This document shows positions 6,684 through 33,330 of a stretch of 34,734 bases of DNA, piece after piece. A program made the translations under genes and the position numbers. The stretch is from a virus (taxonomy: Duplodnaviria > Heunggongvirae > Uroviricota > Caudoviricetes): IMG/VR virus record IMGVR_UViG_2531839454_000020; one strand, 5' to 3'. The first letter of the stretch is position 1. Each line of letters opens with the position of its first letter. The notes beneath the pieces were generated by a model that had not been told where the DNA came from, searched no databases, and worked only from the letters and a program-made list of their open reading frames with translations.

Positions 6684-8591
6684 ATGAAACTAATTTCTAA
6701 TAAGGCCAAATTAAAAAAGATTCTCAGAAATGCAGCCAAATATATTACGCCACCGCCTAAACTCCTTCCATCGGAATGGTGCGAAGCTAATATGGTGCTG
6801 GTAGATGGTCCTCAAGCTGGGGATAAAGTTAAATTGCTGTCATTCCAGAAAGGTATGATTGATGCTCCTTTCCTTGAGAACAAGAAAAAGTATGTTCTGA
6901 TGACCAGTGCGCAGATCGGAAAGACTACCATCCTGAACGGCATCCTGTTTAACCAGATGGCTAACGATCCATGCAATATGATTATCGGACAATCAACCGC
7001 TAAAGAAATGTCTCAATATCTCGCTGGTAAGATCCGACCGTCTATCGAAGCATGTGATGCATTAAAAGACGTGGTTACAGACAAGAATGATCGCAATGCG
7101 GTTAACAACAATAACCAACTCCAGCTAAAAACGAATCACTTCCTGTACATGGTATCGCTTACCAGTCCATCAACCCTGCGCGGTAAGACTGCAAAGGTCG
7201 GACTACTAGACGAAATCGATGCTGCTACAGCCTCAGAAGAAGGTGATCCGGTGGCACTGGCTGCTAACCGTTTAACTACCTTTGGCGATGAAGGCCGATT
7301 AGTCGTATCCAGTACCCCGACCAGTAAGCTCGGAAGCATTAACCAGCAATGGTTATCAAGCGATATGCGTATGTTTTTTGTTCCGTGTCCTCATTGCGGG
7401 GAACACCAGGTGATCGAGTGGGAAAACGTTCAATTTGAATGGCGTAACATCGATGGTAAGAACTTACCCGATCCTGATACCGCTCGTTATATTTGCCCCC
7501 ACTGTAAGAACGCATGGACAGAAGGGGAACGAATCAGGGCAGTAGCGCAAGGCGAGTGGAGAGCAACCCGTGAAAGTGAAGTAGCAGGATTCTGGATTAG
7601 CCGTCTGTATTCACCTTTCAGCACGATCCGCGCTTGTGTGGTTGATTTTAGTCATGCGTGGCAATCCTTTGATTTACAATCATTTTATAACACCGTGTTA
7701 GGCAAGGTATACGATGATCAGGACACGGCAGTAGAAGCAAATGAACTGGAACAACTCAAAACAGATGTTTCTATCGAGAATATCCCTGATGACGTGATTT
7801 TCTTGTGCTCAGGAATTGACCAGCAATTGGATCGCGCAGAATCTACCATCTTAGGTGTAGCGAAAGATAAGGTTTACATTCTGGATCACCGTAGCTTTTA
7901 CGATCATAACTGTGAACGATACGAATCACCTGTATGGGATCGTCTGGTTAACTTCAAGAAAACCAAATTCTATAACGTTAATGGTGAACGTGTGCCAATG
8001 CTCGCCAGCTTCCTCGATACATCAAACGGTCGATTCACTCAAGCCGGATACCGTATTTGTGGTAAGTGGAAGAACCTACACGCTATTAAAGGTAGTTCAT
8101 CTGGTAATGCTCCAGTGATTCCGGTTAAACCTACCCGCACAGGTGGTCATGAATTGCTTATGCTGGGCGTTAACGTTGGTAAATCCGCTGTTCGTGAAAT
8201 GCTGGTTAGAAACCTGAAAGATAATCCTCATATTGGCTTAGAAATATCAGAAACCGTTCCTGATGATTATCTCGATCAGCTTTTGAGTGAATCCATCAAG
8301 CGTACTACTACTGGTGTTCGTTGGGTGAAAAATCCAGGTAGTACCCGAAACGAGGCTCTCGACTGTCTGGTTTATAGCTATGCTGCTTCTCGCTACGTCC
8401 TTTCAAAAATGTCATGGGATAAACTCATTGCAATGAAAGACAGCTTAAACAGCGTTAAAGAAGAACCCGTAAAAGCTCCTGAATCGCAATCTGACGAGCA
8501 AATCGAAGAAACTAAGCCAATCACACGACCGCAACGTCAAAACATCGCCAGACGCCCAAATAGAGGCCGTAGCTGGGTAACATCGTTCTAA
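6684..8591 (+). CDS. terminase large subunit (GpA-like), 635 aa
   Basis: First gene of the + structural block; Walker-A-like TSAQIGKTT; size and position typical of a large terminase; SD GAGGGT. Confidence 0.8.
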
Positions 8592-9171: not shown

Positions 9172-10683
9172 ATGTTTAATCTTTTTCGACGCAAAAAGGC
9201 GGTAGAAACTCCAGTTAAAACTAATCACCGCCAGCAACAACCAAAAATTTTCATCGATAAGCAAGTAGAAAAATTCCAGAAATCTCTGGCGACTCGTAGT
9301 TTAGGACTGGTTGGTGATCGTATTGATGGATCACTTCAACAAGACACCATTACAGGAACCTTCAATAAGGCTCTCAAATCGAATGGTAAGCGCCTTTATG
9401 ATCAGGGTCGTACTCTGGCCTTAAACACTTCCGTAGGCAGTCGCTACACGCAATACATCACCGATATGGTGGTAGGTACTGGCCTAGATCCGAAGCCGTC
9501 AGTTGTTAAACCAAATGGAAAACTTGATAGCGCACTGAATAAGCAGATCGAGAATGCTTTCTGGAAGTGGGCGCAGAATGCTAAACGCTTCTCTCGCAAT
9601 GGTCGTTTTAACTTCCGTGAATTGCTGGTAATGGCTGAACGTGAGCGCGTTATGGGTGGTGAGTGTTTCATCGTTTTAACTAAAGAAAACAATGAGTTAA
9701 ATGTTTCTATCCTGTCTGCTGATAAATGCGACTGGTCGCTAAACCGTGAAATAAGCAAAGAGCGTGCGATATATCAAGGTGTGGAGTATGACGTAGAGAC
9801 GATGAAGCCCGTAGCATACTGGTTTCGTAAAATCAACCTACTGACTCAGACCTACACTGGTGATAACTATCGCGTCGATGCTTCGCAAGTATGCCATTAT
9901 TATCAACCACTTGCGGCTGAATCCCTGCGTGGTGTGACTGACTTCCTGCCAGTGATTAAGGATATCGCACATCAAGACGCATTCCGCGAAACTGCGATCG
10001 TCCAGAAACGTATTGCGGCTAGTTCTATGGGCTTTATCGAACGTCCGAAAGATTCTGGTGACGATTTTGATACTGGTGAAGAGGATGAACAATATCAAGC
10101 GCCGGAAGTAGTACAGGATTTTGCACCTGGTACTATTCAGGAATTACCGGAAGGGGCAACGATCAAGAGCATCCAGGCGACGCAAAGCGGTGATGATTTC
10201 AAATCCTTTAACGATGCGATGTATGGTAGCGTCGCGATGGGCTTAGGCGTGTTTAAACAGGGCTTGACTGGTGACACTAGCCAAATAAATTACAGCGCCA
10301 GTAGATTCGGTGATTTAATGCAACGACACCGCGTTAAAGCACTGCAAAACAAATTGATTGAAACAGTGGTATTGCCAATTTTCGAAGCATATCTACGCCA
10401 TTATTCCGCGCGTGGTATTGTTCCGATTCGTATTACTGCAATTCCGCATATTATCGATAACACTACTATTATTCGTCCTCGTTTTGAATCCGTCGATCCA
10501 TTTAAAGACGTAAGCGCCGAGATTGCTTTAATTGATAACGGACTTAAATCACGTACTGCCGTTATTCTTGAACGTGGTGATGATCCTGAAAAAGTATTCT
10601 CAGAGATTCAAGCCGAAAAGAGCGCACTAAATATTATCGTTAATGGCGAGGGTGAAGAAAAAAATTCCCCAGCCGATCCCTAA
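9172..10683 (+). CDS. portal protein (503 aa)
   Basis: Size and position directly upstream of the protease/capsid gene; SD AAGGGGGA. Confidence 0.75.
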   Translation: MFNLFRRKKAVETPVKTNHRQQQPKIFIDKQVEKFQKSLATRSLGLVGDRIDGSLQQDTITGTFNKALKSNGKRLYDQGRTLALNTSVGSRYTQYITDMVVGTGLDPKPSVVKPNGKLDSALNKQIENAFWKWAQNAKRFSRNGRFNFRELLVMAERERVMGGECFIVLTKENNELNVSILSADKCDWSLNREISKERAIYQGVEYDVETMKPVAYWFRKINLLTQTYTGDNYRVDASQVCHYYQPLAAESLRGVTDFLPVIKDIAHQDAFRETAIVQKRIAASSMGFIERPKDSGDDFDTGEEDEQYQAPEVVQDFAPGTIQELPEGATIKSIQATQSGDDFKSFNDAMYGSVAMGLGVFKQGLTGDTSQINYSASRFGDLMQRHRVKALQNKLIETVVLPIFEAYLRHYSARGIVPIRITAIPHIIDNTTIIRPRFESVDPFKDVSAEIALIDNGLKSRTAVILERGDDPEKVFSEIQAEKSALNIIVNGEGEEKNSPADP

Positions 10684-10728
10684 TAACCAACGGGGGCGCA
10701 ATGTCCCCAATTAATTAAAGGTGATTAA

Positions 10729-12729
10729 ATGCTTAAATTTCGCCGCGATCTTAACGGTTACGGTGGAGTTATTAACGAAGGGCATAACGATCAATACGAA
10801 TTTGAAATTGCTTTCTCCAGTGAACAGCCGTATCAGCGCCAATTCTGGGATGAGCAAAATCAAGAGATGGGGGTACTAGATGAAATTCTGGTACATACAC
10901 CGGAAGCGGTTGATCTGTCTCGTCTGAATAATAACGCTCCATTGCTGTTCAATCATAATTTCGATAATCATTTAGGTGTAGTCTGCGACGCTCGAATCGA
11001 TGCGGATAACGTAGGTCGTGCTCTGGTTAAATTCTCTAAGCATGGCACTTTGGCTAATGATATTCGCAATAAAGTCATTGAAGGTACGATGGAAAAAATT
11101 TCTGTCGGCTATGACATTAAAGAATATCACATCGATTACGCCAAAGGGCAATTGATTGTTACTAAGTGGGCGCCCTATGAACTCTCATTTGTCACCGTTC
11201 CTGCTGACGATACGGTCGGTTTAAATCGCTCTCTAAATACTATCACAGTTAATTTGGAGGCTAAACGCGATATGACTAAAGAACAAATTGAAGAAATCAA
11301 AGAAGAACAAGAATCCGCTCAGGTTGAAGAAACTCCGGTAGAAGAAATTAAAGAATCGGAAGTTGAAGAAACTCAAGAGCGCCAAGTTGAAGAGAATAAA
11401 GAAGATGAAAATCTCGAAGACGGAAAAGACGCTGAACATCCTGAAAGTGTTGATGATGATAGTTCAACTGTTCGGGAAGAAGAAATAAAAGAAGAACGTG
11501 AAGCTGCTCCGGTTGAAGAAGAAAAAATCGAAGAAGTGGCTGAACGTTCCGAAGAAGACGAATTAGAAATTCGCGAAATTGCACGCGAACTAAATATTGA
11601 TGACGAAGAATTGAAACGCGCATTGGCAATTAAAGACATGACGCCGGAAGCATTCCGCACTAAGGCACTAAATAATCTCGTCAATGCTCAACGTAATAAC
11701 GAACAAATTAAGGACTCTAAAATGGAAAAAACTTTTGACCTGAACAACGTAATTCGCTCTCTGGTAGATGGTGCTGCTCTGGGTGCTAACGAAGCTGAAT
11801 ATTCCTCTATGGCTGCTGGTGCTGCGATGCAGCGTGGTCGTGCTGCTCGTGGGGGCTCTGTATTCGTTCCGGCTGCTGCTCTGCGTGCTGCTGCTGATGG
11901 TAACACCAAAACTACTCTGACCGCTGTAACTGACGAAAAACTGATGACTGAATCCTACATCGAAATGCTGATGCCGGAATCTGTTCTGGGTCGTCTGGGT
12001 GTGACTGTTTACAGTGGCTTGAACTCCCCGACCGCTATTCCAAAAATGACCGCTTCCAGCGTTGACGCTTTCGGCTTCGTTGATGAAAACGGTGCTGCAC
12101 CGGAAAGCAAAGCTGAATTTGCGAACGTGAAACTGTCTCCGAAAACTTTTGCTGGTGGCAACCCGATCAGCCGTCAGTCGCTGAAAACCGTTCCGGGCAT
12201 CGCTACCCTGATCACTGATCACATTAACAAAGCTGTTCGTATCAAACTGGAACAACTGATTCTGTCTGATAAAGAAAATGCTCGTGGTCCGGCTGGTCTG
12301 GTTAAGCAACTGGTAGACGCTAGCCGCGTTACCAAGAAAGCTGCTTTCTCTTATAAAGACTTCCTGAAAGAAATTGCAGCACTGACCGACGCTGGCGTTC
12401 CTGCTCAGGCGATCAAGTTTGCAATGAGCGGTGCAACTGCTGCTGAACTGGAATCTACCCTGAAAGATAACGGCGTTTCCGGTTATATCATCGAAAACGG
12501 CAAACTGGCTGGTTACGAAGTAGTTACTTCTGGCGTTATCCCGGCAGACCACATCGTTCTGGGTGACTTCTCCGGTATTACTATCGGTGAGTGGGGAGGT
12601 CTGGAACTCGACATGGATCTAACTACATATAGGGATCGTGGTGCGGTAGTGCCTCGTATCTTTGTAGATTTGGACTACGTTGTAGCACAGCCGGAAGCCC
12701 TGAAAGTTCTTCACATCTCCGCTGAATGA
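10729..12729 (+). CDS. prohead protease - scaffold-like acidic linker - major capsid protein fusion (666 aa)
   Basis: N-terminal ~190 aa protease-like region, then an E/K-rich segment (EQIEEIKEEQESAQVEETPVEEIKESEVEE...), then a ~350-aa HK97-like capsid region. Antisense minus-strand ORFs here are artefacts. Confidence 0.7.
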   Translation: MLKFRRDLNGYGGVINEGHNDQYEFEIAFSSEQPYQRQFWDEQNQEMGVLDEILVHTPEAVDLSRLNNNAPLLFNHNFDNHLGVVCDARIDADNVGRALVKFSKHGTLANDIRNKVIEGTMEKISVGYDIKEYHIDYAKGQLIVTKWAPYELSFVTVPADDTVGLNRSLNTITVNLEAKRDMTKEQIEEIKEEQESAQVEETPVEEIKESEVEETQERQVEENKEDENLEDGKDAEHPESVDDDSSTVREEEIKEEREAAPVEEEKIEEVAERSEEDELEIREIARELNIDDEELKRALAIKDMTPEAFRTKALNNLVNAQRNNEQIKDSKMEKTFDLNNVIRSLVDGAALGANEAEYSSMAAGAAMQRGRAARGGSVFVPAAALRAAADGNTKTTLTAVTDEKLMTESYIEMLMPESVLGRLGVTVYSGLNSPTAIPKMTASSVDAFGFVDENGAAPESKAEFANVKLSPKTFAGGNPISRQSLKTVPGIATLITDHINKAVRIKLEQLILSDKENARGPAGLVKQLVDASRVTKKAAFSYKDFLKEIAALTDAGVPAQAIKFAMSGATAAELESTLKDNGVSGYIIENGKLAGYEVVTSGVIPADHIVLGDFSGITIGEWGGLELDMDLTTYRDRGAVVPRIFVDLDYVVAQPEALKVLHISAE

Positions 12730-12866: not shown

Positions 12867-12895
12867 AGCCCTGCCTTAATGGTGGGGCTTTTTTG
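12867..12895 (+). terminator. intrinsic terminator downstream of the capsid gene
   Basis: agccctgcc/ggtggggct stem followed by tttttt; lies after the 44-codon in-frame extension, not directly after the capsid stop. Confidence 0.6.
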
Positions 12896-12925
12896 TATGT
12901 AAATACTCCATAAAGGGGGGTAACT

Positions 12926-13631: not shown

Positions 13632-14465
13632 ATGAATATTACACAAGATAACTTAGACATTTTCACGGGGTCGCATGTTGAAGTCTCCGTGTCTACTATG
13701 GTGGATAACCAGCCGGACTTTTTCGATCCTGCATTTAGTCCTATCGAGAACATCGCAGCATTTCCGACGATAACCGAATCCACAGAGATCCAGACGTTAG
13801 AAGAATATGACCATGATGTTACTGGTAAGTTGGCTGGCTATCGTAAACTTGAATCAACAACACTCACAGTAAACCGTGTTCTGGATGATGAACATCAAGC
13901 AATGTTGATGAAAGCGGTAGAGGATAAAACCCCTTTACGCTTCCGTATGTTCTATGTTGTGAACTCTGGCTATAGTGCTGCTAACACAGGATACTACGTC
14001 ATTTTTGATGCATACGTCACATCACACAAAACCCGTGGTAGCGATAACAAAGTTACTACCATCGAATTTAAATTAGATCCTGATGGTGGGATTCTCGACC
14101 GTGGTATTGCCACCGAAGGCCGGATCTTACGTCAAGGTGATTTTGGTTTGGGTGCTGGTGTAAATCCATTCACGGGTCCGATTGATAGCGAAGCATTAGC
14201 CGGAAACCGTTTCGTAACCTATCAGGGATCGAGCGCATCTAACCCATTTAGTGCTGATACTTCACTAATTCACGTTCAACCTAATGAAGATGGAGGATGG
14301 CAATTAACTTGCACCGCTTCCGGCGCACCACGTTTACGAGTTCGCACAGTCCAGAAAGACGGTAATTCTGGATGGGTGAAAGTGTATTCCACAGAAGAAA
14401 AACCGACACCAGCCGAGATTGAAGCCGTTTCTATCCATGACCGGATCGATTTCGGGGAATACTGA
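13632..14465 (+). CDS. structural protein (277 aa) with C-terminal Ig-like region; tail tube- or decoration-like
   Basis: SD AAGGGGT; C-terminal LTCTASGAPRLRVRTVQKDGNSGWVKVYS suggests a Big_2/Ig-like fold as seen on some major tail or decoration proteins. Confidence 0.4.
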   Translation: MNITQDNLDIFTGSHVEVSVSTMVDNQPDFFDPAFSPIENIAAFPTITESTEIQTLEEYDHDVTGKLAGYRKLESTTLTVNRVLDDEHQAMLMKAVEDKTPLRFRMFYVVNSGYSAANTGYYVIFDAYVTSHKTRGSDNKVTTIEFKLDPDGGILDRGIATEGRILRQGDFGLGAGVNPFTGPIDSEALAGNRFVTYQGSSASNPFSADTSLIHVQPNEDGGWQLTCTASGAPRLRVRTVQKDGNSGWVKVYSTEEKPTPAEIEAVSIHDRIDFGEY

Positions 14466-14538: not shown

Positions 14539-17500
14539 ATGCAATCAATCCAATTTAAACGAACTAATGTTTCTGGCAAAAAACCAACGCCGGAACAATT
14601 ACAGGTCGGTGAGGTAGCAATCAACCTTAAAGACCATGTTATTTTTACCAAAGACCGAGATCATGAAGTAGTTCAAATCTCTGTTTCTCCTGAAACTCAC
14701 GCGGCACTAGAATCTAAAGTTGATGCTAATAAAAAAGAACTGGATAGCACAATTGTAGTAAACGACCGCAATATTCACGCTAAAGTAGATGAAATTAAAC
14801 AAACTACTGATGCAACAATCGCAGCAAATCACGCAGAAATTAACAATAAAGTTGATGTAATTAAACGCGAAACCGACGCGACAATCGAGGCCAATAAAAA
14901 TAAAGCTGCTTCCGATCTTGCTGGTGTTAAAGCTGAATTGTCGGATACCATCAACGCTAATAAAAATGCGGCTGCTGTAGCAACTCAGGAACTGGACACC
15001 CGCATCAATAAAAAAGTTGATGATATTAAATCCCGTACCGATGCAACCATCGTAAGCAATCACAAAGCAATCAATGACAAAGTTGATTTGATTAAGGCAG
15101 AAACTGACCGCACTATCGCAGCAAATCACGCCTATGCGGAAAATCAGTTAACTGACACCTACAATAACCTTACTGGTGTGATTGCAGCCAATAAGCAAGA
15201 GGCAGCGGATAACGTCGCAGCATTAACCCGTGATGTTGAAGCCAAAAATACAGCAATTCATAGCAAAGTTGACAATAACAAGTCTTACACTGATTCTGAA
15301 TTGGCACGCTTAGAAAGCCGTATTGATGCAGCCGATGGATCAAGTGATGGTAAGTACATCAAAAAGCACGTAAACACTTGCACTGATGGCTATTTGCTGT
15401 CTAAGACCGCAAACCCTTTTGATGATCCGAGTGCTCTTAATCTTGATTACTTTGGTGCATTTCGCATGAATGACCTGGCGGGTCATATTGCAATGATCTT
15501 GCATGTTCCGCACCCATCCGGCGTTAATCATGCTCGTGGTTTTGAGTTCACTTATGGGTCTAATCCACATGCTACTGTAAGAACATACGGCTATGATGAA
15601 TTGGGACATTTGGCATATTCTCACCGCATGTATCATGAAGGTGATAAACCTACTCCGGCTGAAATTGGCGCATATTCGAAAGCAGAAATTGACCGACTGT
15701 TCCAGAAGACGCTTAATTTTGGTATCGAGGGTGGTTGGTTTAAACTAGGCACTTTGACAATGCCACAACAACACGGTCGCACGGCTAAGATCCGTTTGGT
15801 AGGTGGTAACGGTTATAACGTAGGACATAATGGAAAAGCCAATATTATCGAATTGGTGATTCGATGCGGCAACAATAGCCCGAAAGGTGTTGTATTCAAT
15901 GCGTATTATACTATTTGGCATTATGAACAACATTTTTGCGCTATTCCAACCGATGGCGACAATTACGATCTTTACGCTTACTACGGTGCACATACAGGAT
16001 TTGTTTTAGCAGAATATCAAGTTTCTTCCGGTGGTGTTTCTTTAAACCTGTTGGATACTCCTGAATATCTGGGTGGTGAAAAACCTGTTGCAGATGAAAT
16101 TTTTGATGCTCTTAACATTTCATCGTTCAATAACTTTAGCAACCGTGGGACGTTAAATTTTGCTGGCAATCATCAAGGCCAATATGATATTGAGCATTTA
16201 AACGAACAACCGACAAATGCTAAAAAGATGTTGCGTCGCTTCCGTAGTTGTGCACCAGCTACAATCTGGCATGAGACAGTTGATGATAACGCATATCGTC
16301 TTGCTACTGGATACGAAGATACAAATCAGGAATTATTGCTGACAGCAACATCCGGGTTACATGTCAAGAAATTAACATTGGATGGCGGTGTTACTGGAAA
16401 TTCTGGTATTGATATTCGTCGAGGACCAAACGAATCAAGTCATTTTAATTTCATGGATTATCGCACTGGACAAGATGTTCGTAATGGTTGGTTTGGTTTT
16501 GGTGATGGAACAACCAAAGATTTTATTTGGTGGAACGATAACGGTCAAAACTCTATAAACCTGATTGAAGATGGTGAATTGCATATTACTGGCGGTAAAG
16601 GCCAGAAAATTGTAATGAATAGCGAAGTTGCATTATCTGAAAATGCTCGTTTGGCTGTCAAAGGTGGTAACTATGGCTTAATTTTTAGAAATGATGGCGT
16701 TGGCTTCCATATTCTTACCACAGATCTCGGTGATTCATTTGGACCGTGGAATACTCGTAGACCATTCAGCTATAATTTTGCTGACGGTGGATTATATTTA
16801 GGTGGCACTGAAACTGCTCGTTGTTTGCATCTTGGAATTGATGGTAGTACCCGTCTTGAAGACAACCTTTTCTTTAAAGCTGGTTCTCGTCAATCTATGG
16901 ACTATATGGAACTCGTCCATTGGGGGGCAAGCAATACAGGTCGAAATAACGTTTTAAGTCTTCGTGACTCAAAAGGATTTTTCGCAGAATTTGAACGATT
17001 GGGTGATAATACCATTAAAAACACCTTCTTCGGGAAACTTAAAGTTAATCGTGGTTCTGACGCAATCGTCATGAATGCCGAAACGGGTGATTCGTCTATA
17101 TATTTGCTGGGTACTTGTGCTGATAATAACAACTGGTATATCGGTAAAGGTGGTGCTGATAATGGATTAGCGTTCTATAGCTATGCTACTAATGCTGCTA
17201 TCAATATTACAAACGCGGGTGATATCGCGCTAAGTCCAAAAGGTGTCGAAATGACTCATGTCAATAACGTTCGATTCTATGTTCATGGTGAACGTTGGAC
17301 TGCTAGCCAATCTGGAGGTTGGGGCGATCAATGGGGATTAGAAGCGCCGATATTTGTCGATCATGGTTATGTAGGACCAGATAGCTATTATCCAATTATT
17401 AAAGGAAGAAGTTTAATCACCAATCAAGGGTATACAACTGCCGTCGATTTTGGTATGCGTCGTGTTCCTCAAAATTGGGGGCAAGCAATTATTCGCGTTG

Positions 17501-17949
17501 GATCTGCGGAGGCATCGCCAGCGGCTGGTCATCCTCAAGCGGTGTTTGAATTTCATCATGATGGTACTTTCTATTCTCCTGGTAATGGTAACTTTAACGA
17601 TGTTTATATTCGTTCCGATGGTCGTCTGAAAATTAATGTTGAAGATTACGAAGAAAATGCGGTGGATAAGGTAAATAAACTCAAAGTTAAAACCTACGAT
17701 AAAGTTAAATCTCTTAATGACCGAGAAGTTATAGGTCATGAGATTGGTATTATCGCACAGGATTTACAAGAGGTATTACCGGAAGCTGTTAAAACCGCAA
17801 AAATTGGTGGTCTTGATAACCCAGAAGAAATTTTAACAATTTCAAACTCCGCAGTGAACGCGCTTTTAATTAAAGCGGTCCAAGAAATGAGCGAAGAAAA
17901 TAAACTTCTTCGTGAACGTCTTGCTGCAATTGAAGCTAAATTAGGGTAA
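14539..17949 (+). CDS. L-shaped-type tail fibre with C-terminal intramolecular chaperone (peptidase S74-like), 1136 aa
   Basis: N-terminal FKRTNVSGKKPTPEQLQVGEVAINLKD; four KVD-x-IK-xx-TD-x-TI-xx-NH repeats; C-terminal ~110 aa beginning S|DGRLKINVEDYE and ending in a coiled coil, as in auto-cleaving chaperone domains of T5-type fibres and endosialidases (recalled). Confidence 0.75.
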   Translation: MQSIQFKRTNVSGKKPTPEQLQVGEVAINLKDHVIFTKDRDHEVVQISVSPETHAALESKVDANKKELDSTIVVNDRNIHAKVDEIKQTTDATIAANHAEINNKVDVIKRETDATIEANKNKAASDLAGVKAELSDTINANKNAAAVATQELDTRINKKVDDIKSRTDATIVSNHKAINDKVDLIKAETDRTIAANHAYAENQLTDTYNNLTGVIAANKQEAADNVAALTRDVEAKNTAIHSKVDNNKSYTDSELARLESRIDAADGSSDGKYIKKHVNTCTDGYLLSKTANPFDDPSALNLDYFGAFRMNDLAGHIAMILHVPHPSGVNHARGFEFTYGSNPHATVRTYGYDELGHLAYSHRMYHEGDKPTPAEIGAYSKAEIDRLFQKTLNFGIEGGWFKLGTLTMPQQHGRTAKIRLVGGNGYNVGHNGKANIIELVIRCGNNSPKGVVFNAYYTIWHYEQHFCAIPTDGDNYDLYAYYGAHTGFVLAEYQVSSGGVSLNLLDTPEYLGGEKPVADEIFDALNISSFNNFSNRGTLNFAGNHQGQYDIEHLNEQPTNAKKMLRRFRSCAPATIWHETVDDNAYRLATGYEDTNQELLLTATSGLHVKKLTLDGGVTGNSGIDIRRGPNESSHFNFMDYRTGQDVRNGWFGFGDGTTKDFIWWNDNGQNSINLIEDGELHITGGKGQKIVMNSEVALSENARLAVKGGNYGLIFRNDGVGFHILTTDLGDSFGPWNTRRPFSYNFADGGLYLGGTETARCLHLGIDGSTRLEDNLFFKAGSRQSMDYMELVHWGASNTGRNNVLSLRDSKGFFAEFERLGDNTIKNTFFGKLKVNRGSDAIVMNAETGDSSIYLLGTCADNNNWYIGKGGADNGLAFYSYATNAAINITNAGDIALSPKGVEMTHVNNVRFYVHGERWTASQSGGWGDQWGLEAPIFVDHGYVGPDSYYPIIKGRSLITNQGYTTAVDFGMRRVPQNWGQAIIRVGSAEASPAAGHPQAVFEFHHDGTFYSPGNGNFNDVYIRSDGRLKINVEDYEENAVDKVNKLKVKTYDKVKSLNDREVIGHEIGIIAQDLQEVLPEAVKTAKIGGLDNPEEILTISNSAVNALLIKAVQEMSEENKLLRERLAAIEAKLG
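17617..17946 (+). other. predicted auto-cleaved intramolecular chaperone domain of the fibre
   Basis: Begins at the Asp of ...YIRS|DGRLK...; 110 aa to the stop. Confidence 0.55.
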
Positions 17950-18948: not shown

Positions 18949-19419
18949 ATGACTACTAAATTTGATATTTTTTCTGGTGGCCTCGTTGGTCTGTTTCTGC
19001 ATGAAGAAGTAACTAACACCGATCTTGACAGTGAAAGCTATCTGGAAATTCCAGAATGTGCGGCTTTCCCGGAAACTGGTGTAGAACGTTCTACTGTCGA
19101 TGTTCCTAACTTCGGTGGTCCGTATAACCGTAAGCTGGTTGGTCGTATGTCTGTACCGGATATCGAACTTTCGATCAACTACATGCCGGGTAACGAAGTA
19201 CACGAAAAACTGATTAAAGCAACCGAAGACGGTAAGCGCGTACAGATTAAAATTGCTTACTACATCGACGCTACGAAAAAATCTGGTGTACATATCGCTT
19301 ATAACGGCTTCCTGTCTAAAACTACCATGACTGGTGGTGAGGATGCTGTAGTAGGCCGTACCTTCACCTTTGTAGTAGATGGTGCTCCGGTTAAACAAGC
19401 TGTTTTCCAGAAACTCTAA
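18949..19419 (+). CDS. major tail (tube) protein, putative (156 aa)
   Basis: Directly upstream of the G/T chaperone pair and tape measure; strong SD GAAGGAAAAG; followed by a strong terminator. Confidence 0.5.
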   Translation: MTTKFDIFSGGLVGLFLHEEVTNTDLDSESYLEIPECAAFPETGVERSTVDVPNFGGPYNRKLVGRMSVPDIELSINYMPGNEVHEKLIKATEDGKRVQIKIAYYIDATKKSGVHIAYNGFLSKTTMTGGEDAVVGRTFTFVVDGAPVKQAVFQKL

Positions 19420-20192: not shown

Positions 20193-22622
20193 ATGACAAA
20201 ACATATAGTAACAATAGAAGGGGATAATAAAGGGCTAAAGAGAAGTACCAATGAAGCCGCCGACCTTCTCGATAGTTTGTCTGAAAAGGCAAGTAATATT
20301 GATTTTGGTGGTGGCTTATCTGGTCTGACTGGATCTCTTCGTGGGATCGCTGGCTCTGCTGGTTTGGCTGCTGGTGGTATTGGCTTAGTTGCGACCGCAG
20401 TGGTTGCAGCCGCTAAAGCTGGTGCGGAATACGTTAAACAGTATTCAGAAGTATCTAAGGCGACCGGACTCTCGATTGAATCCCTTCAAAGACTAGAAAA
20501 GGAATTTTCTGGCACTGGCTTAACAGTTGAAAAATTCGGTGATATCAACAAAGACACCTTAGATAAAATGGGTGATGCATGGGCTAACGGTGGCGGTATT
20601 GCCGATGACTTAGAATCGGTTGGCCTTAAGTTAGAAAACTATGCTCACTTCATGACTGATCCGCAAGGTGGTATGAAAGCGGCGATCCAAGTGTTCTATG
20701 ACATGAAGAAAGCCGGAAAATCAATGGCTGAAATCAAGTTCATGATGGAATCTTTAGCCAGTGATTCAAGCCATATGACCAGCCAGCTTGAGAAATATAA
20801 TACTGCTCAAGAGGCGATGATCGCTATTCAGAATCAATCTGTTAACGTCACCGAAGAAAACGCTAAAAAATATGATAAATTTTCTCAAAATATCAATAAG
20901 CTGGAAAATAACCTGAAAGGTGTCGGTATGACCATTTCTGGTCCGCTGGTTGATAGTTTAAACTGGTTATTTGACTGGTTTAATATTGATTGGGAAAAGA
21001 GTTCTCTATTCAGGGCATTAGATCGACTGAATAAAGAAGGCAAGACCGCAACTGGCGGTATTCTTAACGCCAACCATAAAGACGCTCAAAAAATTATTGA
21101 CAAGTACAATAAAGAAAAGCGTTGGAATAATCTGGCAGATTGGGAAAAGGCCGCGATCCGTGGTGCTGGTGTCGATCCTCGTACTGCTGGCTTTGATGTT
21201 GAAGGATTTAAGAAACGTTTTGGTGATTCTTATAAGAAAAATGGCTCTCTGATTGTTGTCGATAACGGGGAACATCTGACACGCAAGGCAGATCCTAACA
21301 CTGATTTGACTATACCAAATAAACCAGTAAGACCAGAATCATTGGGTAAATCTGGCAACGAGAAGAAAGCCGAAGAAGAAGCACGCAAGAAAGCGGAAGA
21401 GGCAGCTAAAAAGGCTAAGGAAGCCGCAGAAAAAGCACAGAAAGAACGCGAGGACGCAATCAAGCGACTGAATGCACTTGATGTTAAATTGCAAGGGCAG
21501 GTTGCCGCGTCTATTGCTTCTCAAAACAAGCAGTTAGAAGCCAGTTTGAAAGATTTGGATACTGCTTTAGCTCTGGGCTTAATCTCTCAGGAAGACGCAG
21601 CCGCGAAACGCCAGGCGCTAATCGATCAGAATACTGAAAACGTATACAAAATGGTCTTAGGTGCTGATCCGGTTGATGCTCTGAATGCTTTAACACAATT
21701 GCAACAAATCAGGGACAACGAGTTAGAAAGCCATAAACGGTTACTTGATGGTAAGGCTATCTCCTACGAAGAATATATGCGTCGTGTGAATGATACCGAA
21801 CAAAGTTATTCACAGATTGAAGATTCTTTGCATGGAATGGATGGTTTTAAAACCAATCAATTGACCAATAGCTTAGACTATCAGGACTCAAATAATCCGT
21901 TTGCTAAATTTAATGCAATCGATAAAGAGAAATCGGATGCTGAACAAGATTATAAGACCGATAAACTCAAGATTGATGGGATCACCGATCCGGCTAAACG
22001 GATGGAAGAATTAGAAAAACTCAATGAAAACCATCAAAAACGAATGGCTGCAATTGAGAAGAAATATGCTGATGCTCGCCAGTCAATAGCCGATGATATG
22101 TACGGCGGTTTTGCTGCTGCAATGACTCTCTTCGGGCAGGAAAACACTAAAGCTATGCAGATGGCTTTCAATGCTCATAAAGCATTCTCTATCGGACAAG
22201 CGACGGTGAACATGTGGACGGCTGCTACCGATGCATGGAACGATCCGACCAACGTCACCACAGGTCAAAAAATCGCGGCTGCTGCATTGGCTGTTTCTCA
22301 GAACATGGGGAACATCGCAAACATCAAGTCTACTAACGTTAGCGGTATGGCTCATGATGGTATTGATAACATCCCTCGTGAGGGTACATGGTTGCTTGAT
22401 AAGGGTGAACGAGTAGTTGATCAGCGTACTAACGGTGATTTGAAAGACTTCCTTGCTGCTCAAAAATCAGGTGGGGGTAACTCTCAGCCGATTGAAGTTA
22501 ATGCGCCTTTGAACATTAACGGCAACGTTAATAGCTCAGACAAGATGGTCATGGATGCTATCAAACGTCACGCTAAGTTTGTTGCTCAGGCGATAGAAGA
22601 CGTTCAGCGTCGTAAGATGTAA
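20193..22622 (+). CDS. tape measure protein (809 aa)
   Basis: Long protein after the chaperone pair; Gly/Ala-rich N-terminal segment and K/E/A coiled-coil stretches (EEEARKKAEEAAKKAKEAAEKAQKE). Confidence 0.75.
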   Translation: MTKHIVTIEGDNKGLKRSTNEAADLLDSLSEKASNIDFGGGLSGLTGSLRGIAGSAGLAAGGIGLVATAVVAAAKAGAEYVKQYSEVSKATGLSIESLQRLEKEFSGTGLTVEKFGDINKDTLDKMGDAWANGGGIADDLESVGLKLENYAHFMTDPQGGMKAAIQVFYDMKKAGKSMAEIKFMMESLASDSSHMTSQLEKYNTAQEAMIAIQNQSVNVTEENAKKYDKFSQNINKLENNLKGVGMTISGPLVDSLNWLFDWFNIDWEKSSLFRALDRLNKEGKTATGGILNANHKDAQKIIDKYNKEKRWNNLADWEKAAIRGAGVDPRTAGFDVEGFKKRFGDSYKKNGSLIVVDNGEHLTRKADPNTDLTIPNKPVRPESLGKSGNEKKAEEEARKKAEEAAKKAKEAAEKAQKEREDAIKRLNALDVKLQGQVAASIASQNKQLEASLKDLDTALALGLISQEDAAAKRQALIDQNTENVYKMVLGADPVDALNALTQLQQIRDNELESHKRLLDGKAISYEEYMRRVNDTEQSYSQIEDSLHGMDGFKTNQLTNSLDYQDSNNPFAKFNAIDKEKSDAEQDYKTDKLKIDGITDPAKRMEELEKLNENHQKRMAAIEKKYADARQSIADDMYGGFAAAMTLFGQENTKAMQMAFNAHKAFSIGQATVNMWTAATDAWNDPTNVTTGQKIAAAALAVSQNMGNIANIKSTNVSGMAHDGIDNIPREGTWLLDKGERVVDQRTNGDLKDFLAAQKSGGGNSQPIEVNAPLNINGNVNSSDKMVMDAIKRHAKFVAQAIEDVQRRKM

Positions 22623-22672: not shown

Positions 22673-23233
22673 ATGTTCAAATCCAAGAATATTAAAATCA
22701 CAGATTTTACTCTTAAATCAAAACAGCCTTTCTTCAAGGCGCAATCTATTTCTGGTAAGTTCCAGCGTCGCTTTACTGGTATTCATTTTTATGAAGCAGA
22801 ATTTACAGCTAATTTCATGGCTCAGGATATTAACGAAGTAAAAGAATTTGTAGCACGTCACCTTTTTGGTCGTCCTTTTAGTGTGCCACTGTCTTACTTT
22901 TCAAAATATACAGGCGATGTACGCCAGATGGTAACGGCTGCTGCTGGTACTGCTCGCGGTGGGCGTAAGGTAAGACTCTCCAACTTCACCGGAACACTGA
23001 AAGCGGGAACTATCATCCAGTTTGAGAACCACAAGAAAATCTACACGATCACCGAAGATGTGAAATCAGGTGGTGAAATGAAACTCTTCCCTAACTTGCG
23101 TCAAAACGTCCTGGCTGGTGAGGTGATCAAGTATCAGAACGTAGAAGGTGAATTTGTTCTCAAAACTGAAAATATCGATTGGAAGATCGCCCAGATTGGC
23201 AAGATGAAATTCGAATTAGTGGAGAATGTATAA
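22673..23233 (+). CDS. minor tail protein (lambda M-like by position), 186 aa
   Basis: First ORF after the tape measure; stop overlaps next start (TAATG). Confidence 0.45.
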   Translation: MFKSKNIKITDFTLKSKQPFFKAQSISGKFQRRFTGIHFYEAEFTANFMAQDINEVKEFVARHLFGRPFSVPLSYFSKYTGDVRQMVTAAAGTARGGRKVRLSNFTGTLKAGTIIQFENHKKIYTITEDVKSGGEMKLFPNLRQNVLAGEVIKYQNVEGEFVLKTENIDWKIAQIGKMKFELVENV

Positions 23234-23886
23234 TGGCAACTATTCAGGAATCATTCAGCAAACTATGCACTAATCTGGACTTCATCGAGGTCTACAACGA
23301 CCAGACAGGTCAGAACGTGTCTAGATTGACGCTACCGCAGCTTTTTTCCACTGGATCGATGTTTCACATTATCGAAGTGATAACAGCGTCAGGGGACGTT
23401 CTACGGCTTACAGATGGGTATTTCGATTTGGACTATAACGGATTTACGTATCTCGCAACGGGTGATTTTCTTCAAATCTCATCGAATACCGAAGAGAAGG
23501 AGATCAACAACAACGGGATTAACGTAACCGTTTCTAACGTTCGCGAAGAATACATTACTCTCATTCGAAACAAGCAATTCGATAAATCCGATGTGAAAAT
23601 CGAGATGGTTTTCCTTAACCCCAACACGGGCAAGGTTGAAACCACTTACCCTGTTTTCCGTGGGGTAGTCGATTCCATCGGTATTAACATCGAACATGAA
23701 GATGATGAGTGTAAAAACGAATCAGAATTTCAGCTTAATAGTATCTGGGAAGTTCTAGATAAAAACGCTCGTAGTCATGCCTCCGATGGTATCCACCGTT
23801 CCTATGTTGGAAACGAGAACGATCTATTCTTCTCAAGGACCGGGCGCTGGCAATCGGAAAGCAAGTGGCATTCATCGAAGAAATAA
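23233..23886 (+). CDS. minor tail protein (lambda L-like by position), 217 aa
   Basis: Start at MATIQESF with GGAGAA SD; the longer track ORF (from 23179) overlaps the previous gene without an SD. Confidence 0.45.
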   Translation: MATIQESFSKLCTNLDFIEVYNDQTGQNVSRLTLPQLFSTGSMFHIIEVITASGDVLRLTDGYFDLDYNGFTYLATGDFLQISSNTEEKEINNNGINVTVSNVREEYITLIRNKQFDKSDVKIEMVFLNPNTGKVETTYPVFRGVVDSIGINIEHEDDECKNESEFQLNSIWEVLDKNARSHASDGIHRSYVGNENDLFFSRTGRWQSESKWHSSKK

Positions 23887-23932
23887 TCCCTTCTCCCTAA
23901 GCCTAGTAAATAACAGCATGGAGGTATTCAAC

Positions 23933-24352
23933 ATGCTAAAAACTAGGCTTATCACCGATTACATCAATTCTTTAATAGGTCAGGAGTTCGTTCAAGGCGA
24001 GAATGATTGCAATATAATTGCATGTAAGATCATCGATATTCTCGCTGGTACTGACCTATATAATTCTCTTTATAAAAAATATTCAACTAAAGAAGAAGGC
24101 TTGAAAATCTGCAAAGAATTAAGCGGATACACAAATATCCTTCAACCAATTAAGAAACATTTCAAATTAGTCACTGATGATTTACAGGACGGCGACTTAC
24201 TGGTCACAGCCCACAAATTAGGAAACCGCAAATATTATTCCGTAGTTCCTCATTATTCCGGTTATGGCCTCGTTGAAGAAGATGGTATCTGGATGACCAT
24301 TCCTGTTTCAGACATTGACTATGAACAAGTTTATAGATTCGGGGGGGAATAA
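23933..24352 (+). CDS. tail assembly protein (lambda K-like, NlpC/P60-type), 139 aa
   Basis: Start at MLKTRL with GGAGGT SD; ENDC motif suggests an NlpC/P60-type catalytic Cys; stop overlaps the next start. Confidence 0.45.
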   Translation: MLKTRLITDYINSLIGQEFVQGENDCNIIACKIIDILAGTDLYNSLYKKYSTKEEGLKICKELSGYTNILQPIKKHFKLVTDDLQDGDLLVTAHKLGNRKYYSVVPHYSGYGLVEEDGIWMTIPVSDIDYEQVYRFGGE

Positions 24353-27300
24353 TGGGATTTGAAATATTGGTAGGCGCGGTTATTGCTGGTGCGTCTGCTG
24401 GGATGGCTGCTGCTGCAACATTTTCTGTTATGACCGCAGTCGCTATCGGTATGGCTGCTGGTGCAATGACCTTGATCGCTTCCACTGTAGGCGCACCAAA
24501 AACACCGAAAGTACAAAGCCCAGATAATGCGGTGACACTAGGAACATCAAACGATCCTAAGACAGTATTCCCCGTTCTTTTCGGTACTACCCGCACGGGT
24601 GCAATCTGCGTTTACAAAGCAATTTCACAGCGTGAAAACAACAAACTGGTACAAATTTTTGCTATTTCCGAAGGTGAGATCGATCACTTTAAAGCACTGC
24701 ACATCGATAATAAAAACGTTCTCATTAGCCAGAATATGACAATTCGTGATGGCATTCTCGATAAAGGAAACATTAAAGACGAATACCGCAAAGTTTTAGA
24801 AGTCGAGTTTCGCACGGGTAAAAATCCTAACACTGCATTGGATTTAGCTAAACATCATTTGGGCGCTGATTGGGATGATCGGTATCAGGGTAACGGCATT
24901 GCGACCATGTGTATTGTTTTACGTCGTGATGACAAATCTTTGGCTGCTGGTGTTGATATTCTCCAGCCTAATAGCCAGGTAGCGGTCGATGTTATGGGCT
25001 TAAAGATTCGTAACCTTGAAACCAATGCTATTGAGGCTAGCACTAACGGCGTGGACCAGATTTTCCATTATCTGACAAATACAAAGTATGGTCTTAGTGT
25101 ACCGATTGAAAATATTAACGTTGATTCATTCCTGAAAGTGCGTAAACAAGTACGCCAGATGGATTTACATTCCAACGGTGCATGTGATCCGAACGCCAGC
25201 TTTAAAGAGAACTTAACTAGCCTTATGCAGACTTTCGGCGGGGTGATGTTCGAATCCTTTGGACGTATTACGCTGAAACTGGATGCTCCTGATATTGTTA
25301 AGCATACTTTCAATGAAGACAATATCATGATGGGTAAGGTATCACTGAAAACAGGTGGCACTAACGGTTATTTCAATACCATTAACGCGATGTATCAAGA
25401 ACCATCAATCGACTATTCAGAGCAAATGCTACGTTATCCGGCTGATGCTGAAAACGATGCTACTATTCGTCAAGATGGTCGAATTATCGCTAAAGATATC
25501 GAATATCGTTTTGTTAAGTCTAAAGCCCAGATTGATAAACTAGCAAGTATTGAACGAAATAAATCTCGTATCACTCAGGTTATCAGCTTTATGACTACTG
25601 ACGCGTTCACTGCCGAAGTGTGGGATGTTATTAGCGTTACCTATGATGAATTGAAACTGAATAATTCACTTTGGCGCATTACTGCAATTGATCGTTCTAT
25701 TGATTCTGGTATTGCTGGGATGATGACTATCACCGCTACAGAATATAATTCTCAGGTTTATACTGACCTGAACTATGCGGCGACTCCAGACAATAGACCT
25801 ACTGGTTTACCGGATTCAATGACAGTACAGAAACCGACTAATTTCAGAATTAAGGCAACTGGTGAGACAATCCACGGTAAAAACGTTACTTTGACATGGG
25901 ATGCACCGGAAGATTTTAACCGCTACGGTTTCCAGATTGATTATCGTGTGAGTGGATCACCTAACTGGATTAAGCTGGGACAGACTTCACAGCAAATTTT
26001 CAATATCAATGCACTGGCAAAAGATCGTTCCTACGATTACCGCGTTTGTGCTTTCGGTATTATTGCTCGTTCCGAATGGGTGGAACTGGTTAACCAGAAT
26101 CCAGAAGTTACCTATGAACTGCCTACGCCAGTGATCCGCATCAAAAATCAGGGTGGCACACCAGGAACTTTTGAAGGCAATGATCTGATTATCGAATGGG
26201 ATAACCAGCAACAATTAGATGTGATGATCAACGGTGAAGCTAACAAGTTTAGTGACCTGTTTGAAGCATACATTATCAAGGTAACTAACAAGGCTGGTAA
26301 GTCTATTCAGTACCGTACCCGCGATCCTGAATCATGGACGTATACGCTTGATATGAACCAGTTTAACGGCCTTTCGCGTCAACTGACGGTAGAAGTATCA
26401 GCTAAGGGCTATAACAACTCAGAGAGCGCCCCAGCGCGTTTAGTGGCTATCAACCCACAACATAAGCCGATGAAAGGTTTTAGTGCGCGTGGTGGCTTTA
26501 ATACTGCGTTTGTTAGCTGGGCGGATGACGTAGAACATGACTATGCAGGGTCAATCATCCAGTATGCAACCGATAATACTTTCTCCGATGCAAGGGCAGT
26601 GACTACCAATAGCGTTAGTCATACTTCCTTTGATTTGGCTGACGGGGATTATTATATCCGTGGTGCTCACTATGATATTTTCGGTATGGATGATGCTGTT
26701 TGGTCTGAACCGTATTTCATGCAAATGAAATCTACCATTAGCTGGGACGATCAGGACAAAGAAGCACTGGAAGACCTGATTGGTTTACAAGATCGCTTAG
26801 ATGAAACCATCGCGGATGCTATTGCTCAAGCTGGCGCTAATGCCGATGCTAAGATTGATGCAATGCATAAACAGATTACTACCGAAACCGGAAAGACGGT
26901 CCAAGCCTCAGCCGATACCCTTAAGAATCTGATTGCTACCAGTGAGCAAGCCAGCGCAACTAAGATTGATCAGGTTAAAGCTGAACTGAAAGGCGATATC
27001 ACCAAAGAAGTTAGCGCATCCGCTACTACCCTGAAACAAGCAATTGCTACCAGTGAGGCAGCAAGCGCAAGTAAGATTGATCAAGTTCGGGTAGAAATGG
27101 ATGGCAAGATTGCTGGTGTGAATCAGGAAGCAGATGTAAAAATCGATGCTTTGAAGGGAACCATTAACAGCAAATATAATCTGGCAGTTAATGCAGATGG
27201 TCGCGTGGCTGGTATTCATATGAGCGCAACCAATGATCCGGCAGAACCGACAAGAATCATCTTTACGGCTGATAAAATCGCGGTAGCTCCACAAGACGGA

Positions 27301-33267: not shown

Positions 33268-33330
33268 ACCATTTCCAAACAAAAACGCCCCTACCGCGTA
33301 TTATAACGATAGGGGCTAGGTGATTAAAGA

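Follow-up and report, generated by a model that had tools for sequence, protein, structure and literature searches.

Does a phage gene in which protease, scaffold and capsid are joined make one protein or two? The question is raised by a 34,734-nucleotide stretch of a Caudoviricetes virus (IMG/VR record IMGVR_UViG_2531839454_000020; this whole stretch is called the window below), where an open reading frame (ORF) of 666 amino acids had been described in an earlier note, from the letters alone, as a prohead protease, an acidic scaffold-like linker and a major capsid protein forming a self-processing polyprotein. The ORF runs exactly as described there, and domain searches agree that protease, linker and capsid are fused within it (the coordinates of its features are collected in Table 1). 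We read it as belonging to an Escherichia coli prophage of the HK97-like siphovirus type and as a protease-scaffold-capsid gene that is likely, judging from its sequence signals, to be translated from two in-frame starts: the annotated one, and a conserved second one at Met182, from which the gene probably also makes a protease-free version of the protein.

The protease part was examined by profile searches, structure prediction and comparison across the family. Residues 40-162 match the Pfam family Peptidase_S78 (PF04586) with E=1.3e-10 and 42.1 bits, the gathering cutoff being 21, and in an AlphaFold2 model built from a 33-sequence family alignment residues 21-165 form a confident beta-rich domain. 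As the fold search with the full-length model gave capsid matches only, the protease domain was modelled separately, and this model was confidently assemblin-like (the fold of herpesvirus assemblin and prohead proteases). In a profile alignment, the segments FFNH(65) and MS(114)VGF of HK97 gp4 are placed opposite LFNH76 and IS125VGY; the catalytic residues of gp4 are reportedly His65 and Ser114 (Duda et al. 2013), and their place in the motifs was verified on the HK97 sequence. In an alignment of the window protein with 146 representatives at 50% identity, His76, Ser125 and Glu151 were found in all 147 proteins and Asp160 in 99% of them; the last two delimit the E-x-S-x-V-x-x-P-A-D motif (the PAD motif), with which the domain closes. 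The protease fold and the catalytic residues, on which the earlier note had made its protease reading depend, are thus both present, and that reading holds. The score against TIGR01543, the equivalog model of the HK97 prohead protease, was 35.1 bits, below the cutoff of 59; by this comparison the protein is related to the stand-alone HK97 protease and is not its equivalog. The same low score could be taken to mean that the protease is dead and has been kept as an assembly or targeting module, with maturation left to a host protease or another enzyme. With His76, Ser125 and Glu151 invariant over 147 divergent members, a fold that is confidently assemblin-like and no other protease encoded in the window according to Pfam and PHROG scans, this explanation appears very improbable. 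No match to the ClpP or S49 protease families was obtained in the protein in Pfam, PHROG and NCBIfam scans.

Directly past the protease domain, as the first residue of the acidic stretch, comes Met182, 22 codons beyond the Asp of the PAD motif. Its ATG lies within a peak of in-frame ATGs with Shine-Dalgarno (SD) sequences that is seen family-wide, and it is preceded by a GGAGG made by a GAG codon, which is rare in this ORF (6 GAG versus 72 GAA). The 70 nt around Met182 are predicted to be almost unstructured (-3.5 kcal/mol). Approximately 0.65 sites combining an SD and a start would be expected by chance among the 26 in-frame starts of the ORF; since a single occurrence of SD and ATG means little, conservation of the signal in the family was tested. 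Another in-frame candidate, Met629, has a stronger SD (GGGGAGG) but lies inside the capsid fold and in a stable hairpin (-14.8 kcal/mol), and was taken as a chance occurrence.

At the protein level, methionine was found to be enriched 10 to 24 residues past the conserved Arg167 (89 in these 15 positions over the 147 sequences, compared to ca. 12-15 per 5-residue bin elsewhere), and 99 of the 147 sequences have a methionine in the first 25 residues of the linker, where ca. 41% would be expected. A set of DNA sequences independent of these proteins was obtained by a degenerate scan of viral contigs for W-x-P-x-E-x-S-x-V-x-x-P-A-D, which yielded 120 loci, 93 of them fusions and 82 of these non-redundant; SD pairing was scored with the longer 16S tail as the anti-SD. 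An in-frame ATG is located 15 to 44 codons past the PAD-motif Asp in 76 of the 82 fusions. The mean SD duplex energy at these junction ATGs was -6.45 kcal/mol, as compared to -3.35 at non-ATG codons in the same interval (p=3e-19) and to -3.66 at the remaining ATGs of the ORF (p=7e-18); these p-values overstate independence, since the compared sequences are members of one family. The junction holds an ATG with an SD of -6 or lower in 46 of the 82 fusions, versus 4-11 in 14 of 15 control intervals along the ORF and 20 in the remaining one. Out-of-frame ATGs in the junction interval averaged -3.17, indicating that the signal is frame-specific, and the SD core is positioned 5-11 nt from the ATG with a peak at 7-8 nt, where it reaches up to 0.47 per ATG versus ca. 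0.01 at control ATGs. The control interval with 20 counts, at +180 to +209 codons, represents a second excess of ATGs with SDs; it was traced to methionines of a conserved motif at the capsid N-terminus (SFIDMLRN...), mostly with weak SDs, and was not considered a start.

Closer relatives display the same arrangement in varied form. The series TTG GAG GCT ... ATG is kept in four E. coli variants, and one variant has GGG in place of GAG; a mosaic variant, L128, carries GGAGAAAAAAAC-GTG instead (GGAGA plus GTG), and Escherichia phage DCP80, the closest phage record at 43% identity, carries AAGGAAAAACGA-ATG (AAGGA plus ATG). Judged by sequence signals, the gene shows what would characterize a nested gene, a putative in-frame internal start directly past the protease domain. 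No slippery heptamer of the X-XXY-YYZ type was seen by eye at the junction.

Further evidence was provided by relatives in which the two parts are separate genes. In five viral contigs the protease ORF ends 39-44 codons past the PAD-motif Asp, and the ATG of the next ORF overlaps or abuts the protease stop codon (-1 nt in four, +2 nt in one), preceded by an SD that is strong (-10.7 to -12.8 kcal/mol). Of the downstream ORFs, four are complete, at 495-531 aa, and the fifth leaves its contig at 340 aa; all five contain the conserved helical region described below. Two of them were scanned with Pfam and have a capsid domain of the Phage_capsid_4 / Mu gpT-like type, and one, scanned against PHROGs, aligned with the fusion profiles in the part that follows their protease, at positions 219-643 of phrog_4523 and 169-667 of phrog_133. 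Because these split scaffold-capsid ORFs begin at the equivalent place, the internal start of the fusions is, on sequence comparison, homologous to a real gene start. The same observation also lends itself to an explanation which weighs against a second start, namely that a protease gene and a scaffold-capsid gene fused when the stop codon separating them was lost, leaving the internal SD and ATG as a relic, or that these act merely in translational pausing. The real gene start of the split relatives, with its ATG overlapping or abutting the protease stop, is what such a relic would derive from; however, the members of the family are 25-45% identical and the linker is unalignable, and an unselected SD of 4-6 nt plus ATG would not persist in 46-76 of 82 lineages, while a pause site would need neither the ATG nor the correct frame. 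We therefore consider relic or pause quite improbable.

The mosaic variant L128 (E. coli CFSAN061761) matches the window gene only from nt 562 of the gene on and has a differing protease domain, with the N-terminus MSESKFRR.... As the similarity begins there, its recombination breakpoint is no more than a few codons away from the proposed internal start, and protease and scaffold-capsid part behave as if they were exchangeable modules.

The part between protease and capsid is not uniform. The stretch that the earlier note called a scaffold-like linker is indeed strongly acidic (residues 181-290: 44% Asp+Glu, net charge -35, isoelectric point 4.05), but the scaffold role given to it was not supported, as it is a variable spacer that is predicted to be disordered, with a predicted local distance difference test score (pLDDT) of ca. 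35 over residues 168-271 in the AlphaFold2 model. Across the family the spacer is hypervariable in both length and sequence, with a median of 57 aa (interquartile range 47-74), an Asp+Glu fraction of 0.23 and a net charge of -5; the corresponding values of the window's linker in the same comparison are 110 aa, 0.41 and -32, which rank it 9th in length, 8th in acidic fraction and 10th in negative charge among 147, extreme but not unique. The residues that follow form a helical region that is confidently predicted (AlphaFold2), with helices at 275-287, 292-300, 306-335, 338-347, 353-368 and 382-390. Residues 275-390 align with the protein of roseophage vB_DshS-R4C (R4C), and their counterpart heads the capsid gene in the split relatives. 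The NCBIfam model NF045541 ('scaf_prot_MCP2') matched residues 22-349 on its positions 5-287 of 634 with 132 bits, below its cutoff of 525; as far as this alignment goes, the protease and scaffold halves are common to both and the capsid half of the model is of another lineage. Since residues 275-390 are conserved whereas the acidic part is hypervariable and predicted to be disordered, the former are the better scaffold candidate and the latter (residues 168-274) is read as a flexible tether.

The C-terminal part was identified as a capsid protein both by profile and by fold. Residues 407-662 match Pfam Phage_capsid (PF05065) with E=2e-26 and 93.4 bits against a cutoff of 24.2, and a phmmer comparison with the R4C capsid chain (8gta_A) gave 3.2e-24. 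Residues 407-666 are confidently predicted to adopt the canonical HK97 fold (AlphaFold2, Foldseek); the best Foldseek match of the C-terminal domain was 8gta_A (E=4.9e-19), and the HK97 structures 1ohg_A and 2ft1_G were matched with template modelling (TM) scores of 0.67-0.74 normalised to the target. The HK97 capsid assignment earlier given to residues ~300-666 was thus confirmed in kind, with its start moved to near residue 407, as residues 275-390 are a separate helical domain.

Between the helical and the capsid domain, residues 392-406 have a pLDDT below 50 and form a hinge, in which the maturation cleavage is predicted. R4C gene 006 encodes 629 aa that align end to end with the window protein at 27% identity, and the deposited virion chain 8gta_A consists of the C-terminal 268 residues of this protein, as deduced from the alignment offsets (chain residue 11 corresponds to R4C residue 372). 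Its first residue, R4C Gly362, is located opposite window residues ~397-402, within the predicted hinge. By analogy, the length of this chain, which is a modelled/deposited extent and not a measured N-terminus, fits a proteolytic removal of all upstream parts by an activity that is itself predicted; the mature protein of ~265-275 aa would be equal in size to mature HK97 gp5.

The identities and folds of the domains, the conservation of the catalytic residues and that of the internal start signal across the family are computed results. Use of both starts in this phage, a ratio between the forms, the precise place of cleavage and the sequence of steps in the following scheme are proposed on the model of lambda C/Nu3, herpesvirus UL26/UL26.5 and HFTV1 gp17/gp17.5, combined with the HK97 design in which the scaffold is carried on the capsid protein. 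Translation from the ATG at 10729 would give a long form composed of an S78 serine protease (His76, Ser125), an acidic tether, a helical scaffold-like domain and an HK97-fold capsid domain, and translation from Met182 would give a short form of 485 aa with no protease, which would correspond to HK97 gp5 including the delta domain. Long and short forms would co-assemble into a procapsid via their identical scaffold and capsid parts and, because they do so through these shared parts, a set fraction of the subunits would bring a tethered protease into the shell and carry it there. After assembly, the His76/Ser125 protease would remove everything upstream of ~residue 390-402, and the remaining shell protein of ~265-275 aa (~29 kDa) could then expand and take up DNA.

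The simpler possibility is the one proposed initially, a single self-processing polyprotein, in which the 666-aa protein is the only product, every subunit carries a protease and the SD and ATG at Met182 are unused. It agrees with the one uninterrupted ORF, with the good SD at its annotated start (AGGTGAT, identical in four E. coli variants and different in the mosaic variant L128), with the intact catalytic residues and with the publications, in which these genes are described as plain fusions; the internal SD, moreover, has a suboptimal spacing of 11 nt. What it leaves without explanation is a properly spaced SD with an in-frame ATG that is kept family-wide within an unalignable, hypervariable linker, as well as the rare GAG codon from which the GGAGG is built. 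In addition, by a rough estimate of our own, the 415 removable N-terminal parts of ~43 kDa in a T=7 shell would fill about half of the procapsid interior. We therefore regard a single polyprotein as unlikely. Of the original claim, processing is supported by the invariant His and Ser and by the R4C chain, which is C-terminal only, while the single product is disputed by the conserved internal SD and ATG, which argue for two nested products.

Several observations are nevertheless to be held against translation from two starts and the processing that goes with it, in addition to the relatedness of the compared sequences and the limited meaning of the R4C chain length already mentioned. The 11 nt between SD and ATG in the window lie at the long edge of the family range; six of the 82 fusions have no ATG in the junction interval and ca. 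40% have no strong SD; Met629 demonstrates that an SD with an ATG can arise by chance, within the capsid domain, so that a single site proves nothing; and the R4C structure paper makes no mention of a protease or of cleavage. Taking these together with the family-wide signals, it appears somewhat likely that the protease-scaffold-capsid 'fusions' in general are two-start nested genes with a conserved internal ribosome-binding site, and that the ratio of the initiation rates would set the number of proteases per procapsid. No paper proposing an internal start for protease-scaffold-capsid genes was found in a literature search that was thin on subscription journals.

The fusion as such is not rare, contrary to what the earlier note implied; it belongs to a large family that has already been annotated and published. 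An exhaustive search of 1.84 billion representatives yielded at least 496 related clusters at 50% identity with E <=1e-30, and among the best 150 of these representatives all but one (149) are fusions, with lengths of 565-893 aa. The same architecture was found by tblastn in 94 phage records, including VP882, phiHAP-1, the RcCronus group, the Xanthomonas phages FoX1-5, Pseudomonas phage PPpW-3 and Murka; the gene is labelled 'major capsid protein and peptidase U35' in PPpW-3, and in Murka its label is 'major capsid protein and protease'. In the PHROGs, which have no curated cutoffs, phrog_617 ('major head protein', 626 positions, with the protease included) matched the window protein over its full length (E=2.4e-94; residues 21-661 aligned to positions 24-621), and phrog_4523 is named 'major head and protease protein'. 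The NCBIfam model NF045541 bears the name 'prohead protease/major capsid protein fusion protein', and annotators routinely use the label 'Capsid and protease fusion'. "Protease-scaffold-capsid fusion" genes are explicitly described in PMC7302621 and PMC8601537, and the window gene has the features of those in PMC7302621, three parts in one uninterrupted ORF and no separate protease or scaffold gene. The latter point, also made in the earlier note, was reproduced by Pfam and PHROG scans of the window's ORFs, neighbouring and remaining, in which no second protease or scaffold family was found. The gene is thus a member of a known, published kind, and its protein is already in the databases. A CBASS preprint was considered as a precedent and set aside, as it concerns the protease-scaffold protein of Bas13 and not a capsid fusion; a paper on Stx2 phages contained nothing on such fusions.

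The identical protein has an NCBI entry named 'phage major capsid family protein [Escherichia coli]', and at >=94% identity there are more than 120 protein clusters, from E. coli, Shigella and Salmonella. Of 5426 complete E. coli genomes, 49 contain the gene by megablast, in each case on the chromosome, and in 44 complete E. coli genomes the full-length ORF is intact, as it is in the E. coli variants compared. These counts bear on the possibility that the fusion is an artefact of assembly or sequencing, or arose by loss of a stop codon as the prophage decayed. Nothing in its favour was found, other than one E. coli genome in which the gene is split by an IS1 element; and since, besides this conservation within E. 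coli, 149 of the best 150 representatives and 93 of the 120 motif-bearing viral contigs are fusions, conservation across genomes has already refuted it, leaving it a probability close to nil. In the genome with the split gene, that of E. coli FXCREC043 (NZ_CP195866.1 2067802-2070563), the insertion is an IS1A, and RefSeq names the two halves 'HK97 family phage prohead protease' and 'phage major capsid protein'; where the gene is intact, its name is just 'phage major capsid (family) protein', by which the protease is hidden.

Among known systems, R4C gene 006 (PDB 8gta) and its relatives (the RcCronus group, VP882, phiHAP-1, FoX and PPpW-3) have the same architecture as the window protein and are 27-33% identical to it. 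In R4C the gene order is also that of the window (terminase, head-tail joining-like gene, lambda-type portal, fusion gene), but the R4C linker is shorter and not acidic. Escherichia phage DCP80 has a siphovirus-type head module of terminase, portal and fusion gene (PQ671644.1 1858-11786) which opens a 140,978-bp record classed as Straboviridae/Tevenvirinae, with genes that are all labelled hypothetical; the classification or the assembly of this record looks doubtful.

Two further groups were compared by description. In the fusions of small actinobacteriophages (Microbacterium cluster EE, e.g., BurtonThePup gene 5; Arthrobacter AN, AX and FE; Gordonia CW and DM; Rhodococcus RRH1) and in what is called 'fused major capsid and protease' in Rhodobacter cluster RcC, a single gene likewise encodes a protease for capsid maturation, a region for scaffolding and a capsid subunit of the HK97-like type (PMC7302621, PMC8601537). 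Both belong to other hosts and lineages, and their papers do not contain an internal start. The published fusions are, furthermore, tied to very small genomes, while that of the window sits in an ordinary-sized temperate siphovirus.

With HK97 gp4 and gp5 the window protein shares the protease family, the catalytic residues and the capsid fold. In HK97, however, the protease is a separate gene of 225 aa, and the C-terminal tail of its product is reported to bind the capsid protein non-covalently; here, the two are joined covalently via an acidic tether of ~100 aa. In HK97-type phages the scaffold function resides on the N-terminus of the capsid protein and is removed by the protease (PMC10275583); residues 275-390 would be the delta-domain-like part of the window protein.

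Nested genes provide an abundant protease-free assembly protein along with a rarer, protease-bearing long form. In HFTV1 gp17/gp17.5 an in-frame internal start past the protease was shown experimentally, with lambda C/Nu3 and the UL26/UL26.5 genes of herpes simplex virus (HSV-1) cited as precedents. All three yield a free scaffold as nested product and have a separate gene for the capsid protein, whereas here the nested product would comprise both scaffold and capsid. According to the NCBI annotation of phage HK97, lambda C belongs to a protease family other than S78. Gifsy-2, an enterobacterial lambdoid prophage, is said (Effantin 2010) to encode a protease, a central domain possibly involved in scaffolding and the capsid protein in one gene; the protease is reportedly ClpP-like and the capsid reportedly has a decoration protein similar to lambda gpD. 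The window gene does not conform to this reported type, its protease being S78 and no decoration-protein family having been detected among the neighbours of the 666-aa gene in Pfam and PHROG scans. The 'tripartite capsid gene' of Gifsy-2 (2010, Virology 402:355), cited in PMC8538268, is one more precedent for the fusion.

The fusion itself, a known and widespread packing of head-assembly functions into one gene, matters little. A protease-to-capsid ratio of 1:1 would be very unlike HK97, and two starts, if true, would explain how the ratio is set; the logic of lambda C/Nu3 and herpesvirus UL26/UL26.5 would then extend to genes that contain the capsid protein. The annotation of hundreds of phage and prophage genomes says only 'major capsid protein', thereby missing the protease and a probable second product. 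The internal start would also offer a concrete example of split, overlapping and fused head genes interconverting while the start signal persists. As the prophage is native to E. coli, the nested reading is cheap to test there.

Table 1. Features of the 666-aa gene and its immediate surroundings, in window coordinates
Feature	Position (strand)	Residues	Remarks
Shine-Dalgarno-like AGGTGAT	10719..10725 (+)		Ahead of the annotated start; 3 nt to ATG, GG core 7 nt to ATG
Whole ORF, long form	10729..12729 (+)	1-666	ATG start; 666 aa plus stop codon; 73.3 kDa
Prohead protease domain	10789..11229 (+)	21-167	Peptidase_S78, assemblin fold
His76 codon	10954..10956 (+)	76	Putative catalytic histidine
Ser125 codon	11101..11103 (+)	125	Putative nucleophile
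E-x-S-x-V-x-x-P-A-D motif	11179..11208 (+)	Glu151-Asp160	Closes the protease domain; (nearly) invariant
Acidic disordered spacer	11230..11550 (+)	168-274	
Internal GGAGG	11256..11260 (+)		11 nt upstream of the Met182 ATG
Met182 ATG, proposed internal start	11272..11274 (+)	182	Gene nt 544-546; would open a protease-free short form of 485 aa (residues 182-666)
Conserved helical domain	11551..11898 (+)	275-390	Scaffold-like, delta-domain-like
Flexible hinge	11899..11946 (+)	391-406	Predicted maturation-cleavage region
HK97-fold major capsid domain	11947..12726 (+)	407-666	
Terminator-like hairpin	12867..12899 (+)		Downstream of the gene; 9-bp stem, 6 GC pairs, then TTTTTT

Upstream of the 666-aa gene are located, in this order, the large terminase (6684-8591), a head-tail-joining-like ORF of 165 aa and a lambda-type portal (9172-10683), and downstream of it small head-tail genes and a major-tail-like protein. 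The terminator-like hairpin sits in a 196-nt gap 3' of the capsid gene, and a putative terminator is annotated at the equivalent place after gp5 in the HK97 record.

The order of the tail genes is unusual for a siphovirus. A tail fibre-like ORF of 1136 aa (14539-17949; phrog_1699, 'long tail fiber distal subunit', 2e-128) stands between a major-tail-like ORF of 277 aa (13632-14465, phrog_158) and a lambda-type tail-tube-like ORF (18949-19419), the latter with a weak match to Pfam Phage_TTP_12, so that two tube-like genes flank the fibre gene ahead of the presumed tape-measure gene (20193-22622). In a relative in strain 14EC007, where the related prophage adjoins a truncated ycdX, a 'Gp38 receptor recognizing protein' is also found in the fibre region. 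The tail tip (22673-28098) is of the RcGTA/phiJL001 type, with Phage_phiJL001_Gp84_N, DUF6950 and a protein of 1248 aa whose C-terminal receptor-binding domains are GpJ-like. The G+C content of the window is ~0.36-0.47 throughout, with a mean near 0.42, and the average of the E. coli chromosome is well above this value, which suggests a phage lineage acquired from, or common to, hosts of lower G+C. The integrase, encoded on the minus strand (31588-33282), is a large serine recombinase.

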